64,000 bases of DNA from Eledone cirrhosa (Eukaryota): the NCBI GenBank assembly GCA_964016885.1, contig OZ024763.1, positions 26,660,001 through 26,724,000 on the forward strand, written 5' to 3'. Each line of letters starts with the position of its first letter. Positions within the stretch are counted from its first letter, which is position 1. Under the pieces are notes generated by a model, which worked only from the letters and a program-made list of their open reading frames with translations, made no database searches and was not told where the DNA came from. Made by a program: the position numbers and the translations under genes. Positions 31,302 through 54,830 of the stretch are shown in pieces.

Positions 31302-31452
31302 AGCCCCGGGTTCAATCGGGGGTAACCACAGTAAGTTAGGCACTCAATACATTAGTAGTGTGTAAACATTAAATTTAATATAGAAATAGCTTCTACAGGA
31401 CTAGATGATTTATTTAGAATGAAACAGTTCTAGTCCTGTAGAAGCTATTTCT
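31302..31452. mobile_element. Family E element folded back at the hammerhead core
   Basis: AGAAATAGCTTCTACAGGACTAGA / TCTAGTCCTGTAGAAGCTATTTCT arms around GATGATTTATTTAGAATGAAACAG. Confidence 0.75.
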
Positions 31453-31979
31453 TTCTCTCTCTCTCTCTCTCTCTCTCTCTCTCCCTCTCTCTCTCTCTCT
31501 CTCTCTCTCTCTATATATATATATATATATATATATATATATATATATATATATGTATATATATATTAGCAGTAGTACCACTAACACAGCATGATTTGTA
31601 ATATAGGTGTATATGAAACCATACACTATATGTTTATGTATAATAAGAGCGGTGCCCCAGTATGGCCTCAGCCGGATGGCTGGAACAGGTAAAAGAGTAA
31701 AAGAGTAATAAACATATATGAGTCTCGCTAGGAGTATTTTAAGTAGTGATCATGTCGCACCTTCTTCAGCAGCTGTGTGGTTGCCAAAGATATTCAGGAA
31801 TATCACTGAATATAATTTACAGCATGTAATCTCTGTAATTCTTAGGGGAGGGTTTTGGGCACACACCATCACCACTCCACACCACACTCCACTCTACACC
31901 ACTCCACACCACACTCCACTCTACACCACCACACTCCACTCCACACCATCACCACTCCGCACCACACTCCACTCCACAC

Positions 31980-32500
31980 ACATCTAAGCATATCTACATA
32001 TATACACACACACATCTATTAAGCCTATCTTCATACACACACACACATCTTCTAAGCATATCTTCACTTACACACACACACACATCTTCTAAGCATATCT
32101 TCACTTACACACACACACACATCTACTAAGCATATCTTCACACACACACACACATCTAAGCATATCTTCATACACTCACACATCTTCTAAGCATATCTTC
32201 ACACACACACATTTACTAAGCATATCTTCACACACACACATCTATTAAGCATATCTTCATACACTCACACATCTTCTAAGCATATCACACCCTCTAGGTA
32301 TATCTTCACACACACATCTTCTAAGCATATCTGCACACACACACACATCTATTAAGCATATCTTCACACATACGCATCTACTAAGCATATATTCACACAC
32401 ACATACACACATCTACTAAGCACATCTTACACACACACACTCACATCTTCTATGCATATCACACACACACGCTCATAGACATCTTTTAGGCATATCTTCA
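31980..32500. repeat. CTAAGCATATCTT(CA)n minisatellite
   Basis: Directly visible. Confidence 0.85.
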
Positions 32501-33023
32501 CATACACACACGCTCACACACACACACGACCCCCCCCCCACACGGCCCCTACCCCACATACAACACACACACTCTACCCCCACACACATCACATACACAC
32601 ATTTTCTTCTTCCTATTCGTCAGCAGTAGAACAGCAAACAGCTACTAAGAACATATTTAACACACACACACACAGACAGACACACACACACACACACACA
32701 CACACACACACACACACACATACATACACACACACATACACACACACACATACACATACACACACACACACACACAGACACACACACATACATACACACA
32801 TATATATACATACATACATACACACACATATATACATACACACACACATACACACATACATACACACACTAATGCATATCTACCAACGTTCATATCTATA
32901 AACACACACACAACCTTCATATCTCTCTCTCTCTCTCTCTCTCTCTCTCTCTCTCTCTCTCTCTCTCTCTCTCTCTCTATATATATATATATATATATAT
33001 ATATATATATATATATATATATA

Positions 33024-33240
33024 TATAGGAACGAGTAGGACCCCGACGGCAGAGCTCAAGCCGTTTCGACGGCTAATTCTGGACTAAAAAAAAAAAATTT
33101 TTTTAAATTACCCGTCGAAACGGCTTGAGCTCTGCCGTCGGGGTCCTACTCGTTCCTATTACCCACTCTACTACCCTAAGTATTGAGTACTTTGGTGCGT
33201 TATGGTCCACCTGATTCCTTACCACATTTCCTTCGTTATA
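33024..33240 (+). mobile_element. Family C element with 5' fold-back palindrome
   Basis: ~50-bp inverted arms plus the family C tail, flanked by (TA)n. Confidence 0.85.
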
Positions 33241-33463
33241 TATATATATATATATATTTTATATATATATGACGATTGTATATGTATATATATATATATA
33301 CATATATATATATATACATACACAATCGTTATCTATATTTTATATATATATATATATAGAGGGCGACCGGCTAAGGTGGAATATGCTAGATGTCGGTCGT
33401 CCTTGGGTCTATGATTTTCAGCCCCATGGATTTTATCTGTTACATTCATTTGTTATATTTCGA

Positions 33464-33521
33464 ATACCTGATGATGTCACCGGATTCATACTGAACCCGG
33501 TCATTGAAATGATCATAGTAT
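33464..33521 (+). ncRNA. Type I hammerhead ribozyme motif
   Basis: atac-CTGATGA-tgtcaccggattca tac tgaacccggtcatt-GAAA-TGATCA-TA-gtat. Confidence 0.78.
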
Positions 33522-33669
33522 AATAAACCTTTCAAGGATTTACACAAGTCCAGCCTCCTGTCATTTCATTATATATATATATATATATATATATATATAT
33601 ATATATATATATATATATATATATATATATATATATATATGTGTGTGTGTGTGTATATATATATATATA

Positions 33670-33840
33670 TATAACAAAGGAAATGTGGTAAGGAACCAGA
33701 TGGACCATAACGCACCAGAGTACTTAATACTTAGGGTAGTAGAGTGGGTAATAGGAATATGTATGACCTGCATGGCAGAGTCCAGAAATAGCCGTCGAAA
33801 CGGCTTGAGCTCTGCCGTCGGGGTCATACTTTTTCCTATA
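33670..33840 (-). mobile_element. Family C element with partially deleted palindrome
   Basis: Reverse complement of the family C tail, between (TA)n tracts. Confidence 0.8.
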
Positions 33841-51845: not shown

Positions 51846-51852
51846 TGTGTAT

Positions 51853-51944
51853 AAGCGCCTGAAGAGAGGACTCAATTTTGATCCCTCTTGTGTATTCTGA
51901 AGACGTGGGGTCAATGTTGGGCCTTGAAACCTTGGTTAGCGCTT
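51853..51944 (+). ncRNA. Type I hammerhead motif with extended helix II
   Basis: aagcgc-CTGAAGA-gaggactcaa..ttgatccc...ggggtcaa..ttgggcctt-GAAA-CCTTGG-TT-(a)gcgctt. Confidence 0.7.
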
Positions 51945-52263
51945 TTGTTTCGTGTATGAACATTAATATATATATATATATATCTAAGGCGGGGTATGAC
52001 ATTAAACTACATCCAGTGGCAAGGCTCCAGTTCGGGAGTTCAGGAGTTGTGGGGAATGTGGAGTTACCCCTTAGTTGTCATAACTCCCAGGTCTGCCCTG
52101 GCCCGGAGTAGTAGTACCTGTTGGGGCTCCATTTATGGGTTAAATAACTACCCTATTCGAGTGGCGCCGGTAAGGTATTGTCAGCCATTGAAAAGAAAAT
52201 ATATATATATATATATATATACAATATTAAATAAATGGAAAACTATATTTATAAAACCATATC

Positions 52264-52329
52264 TATTTCATTATATATATTTCGGGGATATCATATTAAC
52301 AATATGCTATGCCTTCATCAGACAAAATA
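52264..52329 (-). ncRNA. Type I hammerhead motif (same family as 11387)
   Basis: tattttgt-CTGATGA-aggcatagcatatt gtt aatatgatatcccc-GAAA-TATATA-TA-atgaaata. Confidence 0.72.
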
Positions 52330-52622
52330 CAATATAAACAGTTTTATAGATAAATATATTCGACATACCGTAATAAACATCGACTTCATTTGAAGAGGTT
52401 TACGCTAGCAGTAATATATATATATATATATATATATGTATGTATACACACACACACACACATACATATATATATATATATATATATATATATATATATA
52501 TATAGAGAGAGAGAGAGAGAGAGAGAGAGAGAGAGAGAGAGAGAAAGAGTGAGAGAGGGGTGGGTGGAGAAAGGTTACATAGAAGGAATCTGAATAGAGT
52601 TAATGATTTGAAAGAATTATTT

Positions 52623-52750
52623 TCTGTCTGATGGTCCTACTAGTGTGTAGGTGAAACTCCAGAGTAACAAGACTCACCACTTAGCTTTATTAAATGTATA
52701 TTTAAACTCTACTTCGGTATTGAGTACTTTATCTCACATCCGTGATATAT
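52623..52750 (+). mobile_element. Family F element: hammerhead with A9G change (52623-52672) plus 3' tail
   Basis: tctgt-CTGATGG-tcctac tagtgt gtaggt-GAAA-CTC ca GAG-TA-acaaga. A homologue lies at 54705-54830. Confidence 0.65.
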
Positions 52751-54704
52751 ATAATACACTTTTATATATATCCATCTCTCTCTCTCCCCCCCTCTCTCTC
52801 TCTCTCTCTCTCTCTCTCTCTCTCTCTATATATATATATATATATATATATATATATATATATATATATATATATACAACATAGAAAACAATCAAATGTT
52901 TGTTTAATGCATCTAATTGTTAATTTTCTTACTGGTAATTGGGTAATACAAAATATTACCCTTATCTTATTTGTAATTATATATATAAGTATAAATATTA
53001 TATATATATATATATATATATAGATAGATAGATAGATAGATATATAAATATATATATATACACACACACATCTATCTATTTCTCTCTCTCTCTCTATATA
53101 TATATATATTATATATATATAAATACGTTTTAAACACAAATGTATGGTACCTAAGGTTTCAAACACCATCTAGCATAGGACATAAACATTCTACACCTGC
53201 CAGTTTAGTGATCTTCAAGCAAAACCAAGATGGCCGAACATGTGCGCTTGACACACACACACACGTATATATATATATATATATATATATATATATATAT
53301 ATATAAGGAAAAAAGATGAGATCGAAAATGCAACTGTTGCATTTTCGATTTCATCTTTTTTCCTTATACTTTCACTCGTGTAGGACATCTCGTTTTTTTT
53401 TTTTTTCATTAAAAAAAACCCTCATTTTCTTATATATATCTACATACACACACACATATATATGTGTGTGAGGCGCGTGGCTTAGTTGTTAGGGTGTTCG
53501 ACTCACTATTTTAACGTGTTAAGCTTTATTCCCAGCGGTTCATTGTATTTTGAGCAACACATTATATCTTACTCAAGTAATAATTCATCTCTTGAATCTA
53601 CCATTCATCGTGACACGCTCAATCTCCTGAATTTTTTTTCTCCACCAAAACCTATTTAATTTCAATCCAATATGAAGCATCTAAGCTATCGCTCGACCTG
53701 GTAGAAGTAGCAATTAAATCTATCGCAAATGACGGTATTTCAATGAGGATGAGAAATGGTTGGCGGGAGAACACATAATATAATATATTTTCTTAGTTCA
53801 GACTCAAGGAGTTGGTGTTAAACCTAACACAACTTAGCGTCCGAAACGTTAAAACGTAATTCATTAAGCGTGAAACTAATATATATATATATCTTCATTT
53901 CATTGTACTTTATCGTCTGTTGTGTTTTTCCCTTTTACTTTTCACACATGAAGGACCGTGACAAATGGAGAGATGGTGTGCTGAATAGGACCCGTCCAAC
54001 TCTTGCAAGCAGGGAAAAGCGGACGTAAAATGATGATGATGATGTTATATACATACATACATACACACACATTAGTATAGTTCATAACCATGGTTATATA
54101 TATATATATAACTATTTTTCCCATTTTGACGCTATAGTCACTTATATATTATGGAATACTGTTGGCTTTTTGCTACAATATTTTCTATACCTTTCATTTA
54201 TATATATATATATATATATATATATATATATATATATATATATCTTCGGTTAGCTTTCCCCTGTGTTGTTTACTTGTCTCACTCGCTTTACGCGTTTTAA
54301 TTGTCCTAATAACTTATTTTAGTTATTATTGCACCAACGTGAGGTATATGATTTTTAATGCAATGAAATACCAATGACCGTTGGCAAATCACTGATGAGG
54401 GACTCATTTTATAACATGTTATCCATGTGCAACCATGCAGTATTCTTCTCCCCATATTTTTCACACATATACATATATATATATATATATATATATATAT
54501 ATATATATATATATATATATATATATATATATATATATATATATGGAAAAAGATGAGTATTGACGTACATGTACGTCAATACTCATCTTTTTCCATTTAT
54601 CTGAGGGTTCTAAGCCCCATTATCAGACTAAAATTTCTTTAGTCAAAGAATAGGGTGAAAGCTATTCTATTTTCTAATATATATATATATGTGTGTGTGT
54701 TTAT

Positions 54705-54830
54705 ATATGTTCATTTTATTAAGGCTAACTAGTGAGGTTTGTTACTGGAGTTTCACCTGTTTATCACAGATGAAACTCCAGATTAACAAGACTCATGATT
54801 TAGCCTTAATAAAATGAATATTAAAACTTT
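54705..54830. mobile_element. Family F element folded back at helix II
   Basis: TTCATTTTATTAAGGCTAA...CTGGAGTTTCA cctg tttatca caga TGAAACTCCAG...TTAGCCTTAATAAAATGAA. Confidence 0.7.

Follow-up and report, generated by a model that had tools for sequence, protein, structure and literature searches.

We asked why the inverted arms of short Penelope-like element (PLE) insertions in the genome of Eledone cirrhosa meet at or near a hammerhead ribozyme. The question is raised by a stretch of 64,000 nucleotides (contig OZ024763.1 of GenBank assembly GCA_964016885.1, positions 26,660,001 to 26,724,000 of the forward strand; hereafter the window), in which three such palindromes are found. A sequence-only reading of the window had proposed that complementary DNA (cDNA) synthesis stalls at the folded ribozyme, snaps back and primes its own second strand, and had predicted that breakpoints would peak at helix II. 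Our results point to another origin. With a probability of roughly two in three, the sharp 5' limit of the arms (which we will call the wall) reflects run-off of the reverse transcriptase (RT) at the capped 5' end of the template RNA, combined with twin priming on one RNA; the two arms are joined by microhomology, and RNA helices act as minor hot spots. The structures themselves are ordinary and very common in this genome, and what we see is a known structure with a real clustering of breakpoints, the cause likely being other than the one first proposed.

Positions within arms are counted from the C of the CUGANGA core (position 0), and the three families are called A (window positions 52625 and 54707), B (17344 and 31305) and C (54982). 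Motif scan and alignment recovered inverted structures in all three regions named before (around 54750, 31383 and 55016). They are real head-to-head PLE stubs in (TA)n, each with one tailed and one tail-less arm. The family A palindrome spans 54707-54835. Its tail-less arm (+9 to +73; 54707-54769, minus strand, aligned to locus L023) meets a tailed arm that runs from +18, the 3' strand of helix II, into the tail (54766-54857, plus strand; aligned to 54835 and followed beyond by eye against L023 and L021), and the 4-nt microhomology at 54766-54769 comprises both helix II strands. The junction thus lies on helix II, as had been claimed for 54750-54781, but the loop TTTATCA is antisense and is part of the tail-less arm (comparison with L023). 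The sister copy, a single-armed stub at 52625-52756 (plus strand, 3' end approximate), had been taken for a complete ribozyme from 52623; it carries CUGAUGG for CUGAUGA and aligns from -3 only.

The family B palindrome spans 31305-31452 and consists of a tailed arm (+27 to +121; 31305-31405, minus strand) ending in the helix III region and a tail-less arm (+2 to +50; 31404-31452, plus strand) starting in the core, with a 2-nt overlap by alignment. A join at the GATGA core had been suggested for 31383-31452; this is true of the tail-less arm, but not of the tailed one. Its sister was correctly described as complete: the long copy at 17344-17531 (minus strand) holds a promoter remnant, a complete minimal type I hammerhead (17425-17475, minus strand; motif scan and compensatory helix I pairs; predicted cleavage between 17431 and 17430) and a tail. 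The family C palindrome spans 54982-55317, with a tailed arm (+43 to +194; 54982-55133, minus strand, by alignment) and a tail-less arm (-30 to +169; 55118-55317, plus strand, by motif scan and alignment) whose hammerhead core lies at 55148. Here the microhomology is the 16-bp extended helix I itself (55118-55133, partner strand 55191-55206; perfect pairing, fold z = -8.3), and the whole hammerhead core forms the spacer of the palindrome, so the position "just upstream" of the ribozyme that had been stated for 55016-55308 does not hold. An assembly artefact at 55118 is argued against by 17 other loci with the identical junction type. In all three window cases, the spacer sits in the tail-less arm and the tail on the shorter arm. 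Since a snapped-back strand copies its own cDNA only and cannot gain a missing tail, these cases contradict snap-back, and they count against it unless the spacer was flipped later.

The host genome (3.0 Gb) is rich in (TA)n. In 464 kb (the window and 40 stretches of 10 kb, simple repeats masked), 155 local inverted-repeat matches were found, many of them head-to-head pairs in which the outer end of one arm is longer. Insertions lie in (TA)n and have two recurrent 3' ends, namely the tail end and an AU-rich site situated some 60 nt inward of it. Statistics were based on tail-anchored patterns, and whole-copy DNA searches were excluded, since the latter are biased to long copies. For family B, an exact 31-nt tail pattern gave 964 matches, of which the first 70 loci, all on C1, were analysed; two arms from one locus are non-independent. 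Automated junction calls are fuzzy by about 3 nt, and they missed mini-arms (L228, L288, L292). An inverted arm was present in 45 of the 70 family B loci (13/30 in A and 14/30 in C), and 44 of these 45 arms were tail-less.

Family B arms ended preferentially at -1 to -7 (38 ends per 224 nt at risk), 25.6-fold above the baseline hazard of +19 to +96 (36 per 5438 nt; p = 2e-33), and only 7 of 70 tailed arms passed -7. A random 10-kb sample concurs, with 38 of 57 arms ending between -8 and +2. The peak lies on the 5' strand of helix I and not on helix II, where the hazard was 11/861 (1.9-fold, p = 0.049). Family A ends (30 loci) ranged from +61 to -9, with six at +17 to +23 and six at -5 to -9; its consensus ends at -9, so A arms cannot align further 5', and about 14 of 72 A rows do run upstream. 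Breakpoints are therefore non-uniform and gather at the hammerhead in A and B, as the sequence-only reading held, whereas the peak that it placed at helix II is found at -1 to -7 (26-fold), helix II being weakly enriched (1.9-fold in B, about 2.9-fold in A). A pile of family K ends at 27-28 was left out, as it reflects subfamily divergence. Among 100 rows of the family A core pattern, 28 were dropped as chance matches within the open reading frame (ORF) of a long interspersed nuclear element (LINE; L379). This is a young LINE with endonuclease and RT domains (L357-L379, e.g. L379:48-2756).

It is hardly credible that the wall is made by the hammerhead cutting the template, with cDNAs running off at the cleavage site. 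Single cases do end there (window 18753, L088, L271), but the site itself, taken with 3 nt on either side, is not enriched in family B (5/627, 1.2-fold, p = 0.42), and insertion in vitro is independent of cleavage (PMC11167929).

What the wall does coincide with is a promoter-like arrangement. A TATA box at about -30 together with a pyrimidine/purine start is the consensus of RNA polymerase II (Pol II) promoters. In 17 of 24 long family B copies, TATAAATA starts 30 nt before G-6 (in the window copy at 17498-17505, minus strand); across all 24, position -7 holds C (20 copies) or T (4 copies). The putative start, G at -6 (17475, minus strand), is the first nucleotide of helix I; it covaries with its partner and remains a purine (16, 7 and 3 of 71 family B motifs). 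In family A, a start at A-8 in TTAGTC would fit, and in L359 and L380, the two long copies whose upstream DNA can be read, a TATA-like box precedes it by 29-30 nt. The spacing in B and in family H (-30 and -29), together with these two A copies, agrees with the TATA-box and start-base pattern of a capped Pol II transcript. Two other sources of the -6 end were rejected: a splice acceptor (B has no AG before -6, and A no shared first exon), and an upstream type III cleavage, for which a helix III partner is absent (by eye). In the long family B copies L059, L068, L071, L074 and L075, the 5' limit is a (TG)n/(TA)n tract some 285 nt before the core, which suggests that a longer transcript sometimes supplies the promoter.

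The bases added at the wall are in keeping with a cap. Among 100 of 853 family B matches listed as reaching -6, hand counting gave 68 that stop there and 32 that continue; G stood at -7 in 51 of the 68 stoppers and in none of the 32 continuing copies (Fisher p = 5e-14). From 100 rows listed, 81 unique TA-joined loci were obtained, 30 of which read (TA)n, one G and then the element, while 12 had no extra base (hand count) and the other 39 contained short inverted remnants, templated or other extra bases. The extra G, found in 30 of the 42 direct TA joins, occurs in neither element nor target. Weak support comes from contigs of unassembled runs, in which depth drops about 30-fold across 17463-17483 (three runs of one sample; depth gives no copy number) and the loose-end consensus fits an extra G at the wall. 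An untemplated 5' G at full-length L1 and SVA ends has been read as a copied cap (PMC4859970). Judging from the DNA, we infer that the wall likely marks where the capped template RNA begins.

Two control families separate promoter and ribozyme. Family H, the most abundant, has a 439-nt consensus without a hammerhead motif on either strand and a TATA-like box at -29. Its wall lies at the initiator (Inr): 50 of 147 arms end at -5 to +1 and 11 go past, while 3' ends fall at +61 (45) and +139 (56). In the window, a family H palindrome centred at the Inr lies at 58677-58788, with others at 33028-33156 and 30241-30363. Family D does have a hammerhead, but 39 of its 41 arms continue through the core, and many begin 77-89 nt before it; in the palindrome at 11189-11491, for example, the plus arm begins about 89 nt 5' of the core. 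Because ribozyme-less H has a wall and D reads through its hammerhead, the wall tracks the promoter rather than the ribozyme. This, together with a hot spot at a non-ribozyme 7-bp hairpin (family C, below), speaks against the ribozyme as the cause of stalling. Family H stubs with palindrome and tail occupy 33028-33238, 33674-33836, 58677-58788, 30241-30363 and 18865 in the window, and the ends of this family are possibly of the Naiad type.

As for the joining of the arms, snap-back makes a prediction about polarity. In 44 family B inversions, the arm reaching further 5' was the tail-less one in 21, the tailed one in 12, and the two were level in 11. The 21 cases, like all three in the window, have the polarity forbidden to snap-back. 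In nine of the 44, the tailed arm gets no further 5' than about +63, and the arms overlap barely or not at all. Snap-back is thus not supported as a general route. Junctions in 45 cases showed 1-9 nt of overlap (18), a blunt join (7) or inserted bases (20). Inversions with little or no overlap, joined by microhomology, bluntly or with small insertions, are what twin priming of the L1 type yields. Helix-II-paired junctions number at most 2 of 45 in family B (by eye).

Family C allows the template to be followed. It is a young 310-bp tandem family with one type I hammerhead per unit and no ORF; 1140 tail ends lie in TA, and 14 of 30 arrays are longer than 1500 nt. No wall is seen, and the tail is one-sided, with outer arm ends at +170/+195. 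The helix I junction of the window type occurred 18 times (17 independent) against 0.2 expected, and the notion that native helices serve as junction sites is borne out here. A junction at a 7-bp hairpin outside the ribozyme gave six matches (two may be duplicates) against 0.1 expected. The paired helix I type was, at the same time, absent from the 14 inverted loci among 30 tail-picked ones, so helices are strong but minor junction hot spots. In nine of the 17 helix I junctions, the tail lies on the short arm or this arm holds more units than its spacer-bearing partner (up to six or more versus one), which is the polarity that snap-back forbids; seven fit snap-back and one is ambiguous. Within a locus, variants are common to both arms and to all units, whereas they differ between loci (L309-L356, L087-L110), which points to one template RNA. 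That the units of a locus are identical would fit a circular RNA copied by rolling circle, or a source array that was itself homogeneous.

From this the following course of events is proposed. RT would start 70-130 nt from the RNA 5' end and run off at the cap, like a strong-stop cDNA. Both target strands would prime on one RNA, each nicked strand giving rise to an arm of its own. The ends of the resulting antisense cDNAs would then pair through whatever complementarity they have, be it a chance match of 1-4 nt or the opposite strands of a native RNA helix, and fill-in would yield the palindrome. Junctions at helix I and helix II would arise because the two strands of a native helix serve as complementary ends. 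In family C the template would be a concatemer or circle, and for this reason the wall would be missing and the helix hot spots alone remain.

Several observations weigh against run-off at a cap combined with twin priming. The start and the cap are deduced from DNA, and the longer read-through RNAs needed as the source of B's TATA box were not found. Nor was an autonomous partner with RT and GIY-YIG ORF found for A, B or C, in the case of B in 12 long copies with at most 1.3 kb upstream. In H, the extra G was counted by hand in 14 of 76 loci, less often than in B. In D. virilis, Penelope has a TATA-less start, which is followed after 46 nt by an intron that ends at helix I (PMC2377424, PMC4209133), so a start on helix I is family-specific. 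The 21:12 polarity bias alone is not significant (p = 0.16), and a spacer flip after insertion or a one-sided deletion could mimic the forbidden polarity. Arm pairs of family B differ at 102 of 1292 positions, about as much as unrelated copies (3820 of 43907), and share 15 of 66 variants against 170 of 2234; since they differ much like unrelated copies, a one-template origin is clear for C only. Finally, the commonest B junction (about a quarter of 100 of 853 matches listed) is also compatible with a 2-bp hairpin at the end of a single cDNA, and in 13 of the 81 TA-joined loci 4-5 nt of inverted sequence remain, as a brief snap-back would leave them.

The last two points also speak for snap-back self-priming, as first proposed or in a variant placed at the RNA 5' end. 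A single cDNA would fold back at a helix or at a terminal mini-hairpin and serve as its own template, and the polarity would have been scrambled afterwards by spacer flips and deletions. To these may be added the helix-paired junctions (window 54766 and 55118, 17 independent C loci), the variants shared by C arms and the allowed polarity, seen in 12 of 44 junctions of B and in 7 of 17 of C, and self-priming on an antisense template has been proposed for palindromic PLE junctions (PMC3846280). We nevertheless regard it as unlikely, given the forbidden polarities, the nine barely overlapping inversions and the near absence of helix-II pairing in B described above. The same prominent B junction could instead suggest a few palindromic master copies amplified as units, the variety of junctions resulting from later loss of palindrome centres; perfect palindromes are indeed unstable. 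This is very improbable, because the -6 end is joined to many partner positions as well as straight to (TA)n, the loop is found in either arm, and the two arms of every C locus carry variants peculiar to that locus.

RNA structure probably does add some stops (in the core, in helix II of A and in the extended helix I of C), and this too tells against run-off as the whole explanation. The core of family B (0 to +6) had a hazard of 18/406 (6.7-fold), to which structure would contribute; the enrichment of helix II in A was counted by hand, and the A loop varies among subfamilies and can end alignments. In C, 7 of 28 arm ends fall on the 32 nt of the extended helix I (hand count, p about 0.02). 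With the 1.9-fold excess at helix II of B, the six of 30 A ends at +17 to +23, the C ends on the 16-bp helix and nine family P arm ends within about 10 nt of the P core, these figures would suit a roadblock, that is, RT stalling at an RNA structure or a protein-bound ribozyme and adding C by terminal transferase activity, the wall then being something other than the RNA end. Such an origin of the wall is decidedly unlikely: the wall lies on the far (5') side of helix I, where the structure has already been unwound, the fold of the B ribozyme is not superior to that of shuffled sequences (z = 0.38), and neither the 30-nt TATA spacing nor the behaviour of families H and D would follow from it.

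Twin priming near a capped end has counterparts in known systems. Inverted truncated copies with tails are standard PLE features, and how they form is described as open (PMC8557442); hammerheads in pseudo-long terminal repeats (pLTRs), including pairs on opposite strands, are known as well (PMC4209133). The insertions analysed here resemble those of endonuclease-bearing (EN+) PLEs in their head-to-head arms, one-sided tail, (TA)n targets and hammerhead in the repeat, and TATA/Inr motifs have been noted in the pLTR of rotifer PLEs; they differ in having tails of 25-80 nt, stubs of 70-200 nt and, in A, B and C, no linked ORF found so far (PMC8557442, PMC3846280). An inverted truncated 5' copy, a tail on one arm, a hammerhead in the terminal repeat and a microsatellite target bias ((TA)n flanks) are thus all found. 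In target-primed reverse transcription in vitro by PAc (Poseidon, Anolis), two internal RT start sites likewise bracket the tail, both target strands are nicked and extended, and hammerhead cleavage is dispensable; 5' junctions, a putative cap G and inverted arms are described here but are unmapped in the parts of that work compared (PMC11167929). L1 twin priming offers two target-primed cDNAs that meet at the inversion point, and an untemplated 5' G (PMC4245944, PMC4859970). Here, in contrast to L1, priming occurs near the RNA 5' end at recurrent sites, so that both cDNAs often reach the end and a duplicated palindrome results, whereas L1 shows an inversion inside a long truncated copy. Family C, with its 310-bp tandem units, one type I hammerhead in each and no ORF, is reminiscent of non-LTR retrozymes (10.64898/2026.07.22.740005; PMC4209133), from which it differs in that its arrays also have PLE-type tails and inverted arms. 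No publication on twin priming, a cap G or strong-stop run-off in PLEs was found in a search of the literature outside subscription papers.

Thousands of junctions in this genome make it possible to separate the models, and they favour a sense, probably capped template, two primers and no requirement for the ribozyme. The origin of the tandem and inverted ends of PLEs is a named open question (PMC8557442), for which twin priming at a capped start yields exact predictions for cap analysis of gene expression (CAGE) and for the in vitro PLE system. A broader scheme can be put forward tentatively, although we think it rather doubtful: two strong-stop-like cDNAs might be primed routinely near the capped 5' end, their back-to-back integration giving palindromes and a cDNA jump to the RNA 3' end giving the pseudo-LTR. 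If so, inverted end, tail and pseudo-LTR would share one cause, a target-primed counterpart of retroviral first-strand transfer, and some families would start transcription on the first base pair of the hammerhead.

Coding partners were observed for other families. Family P, with a layout like that of A, B and C, flanks ORFs with RT and GIY-YIG domains (L031:7859-9625, L044). The former, in the interval adjoining the window (G000:C24:26650001-26660000), is a 589-aa PLE ORF fragment with RT, CxxC region and GIY-YIG motif; a family P repeat with hammerhead and tail lies downstream, and an inverted tail-less P arm is found at its truncated 5' end. The layout is repeated in L044, L128 and L180. 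Family I flanks a second type of PLE ORF (L136, L114, L133).

An Rfam scan gave, among the 150 of 399 matches listed, only microsatellite-driven matches of microRNA type and none to hammerhead families. Other hammerhead-like motifs occur in the window at 29692, 33468, 14459, 51822, 51897 and 3465, with one to five relatives each in the 1.5 Mb sampled. A stub of a family B subfamily lies at 18753-18851; here the inverted arm is 11 nt long, stops at the predicted cleavage site and is joined at +26. Stubs of other families with palindrome and tail are present at 53306-53364, 54545-54594, 55957-56035 and 4306-4395, their centres about 25-45 nt from the tail-less end.

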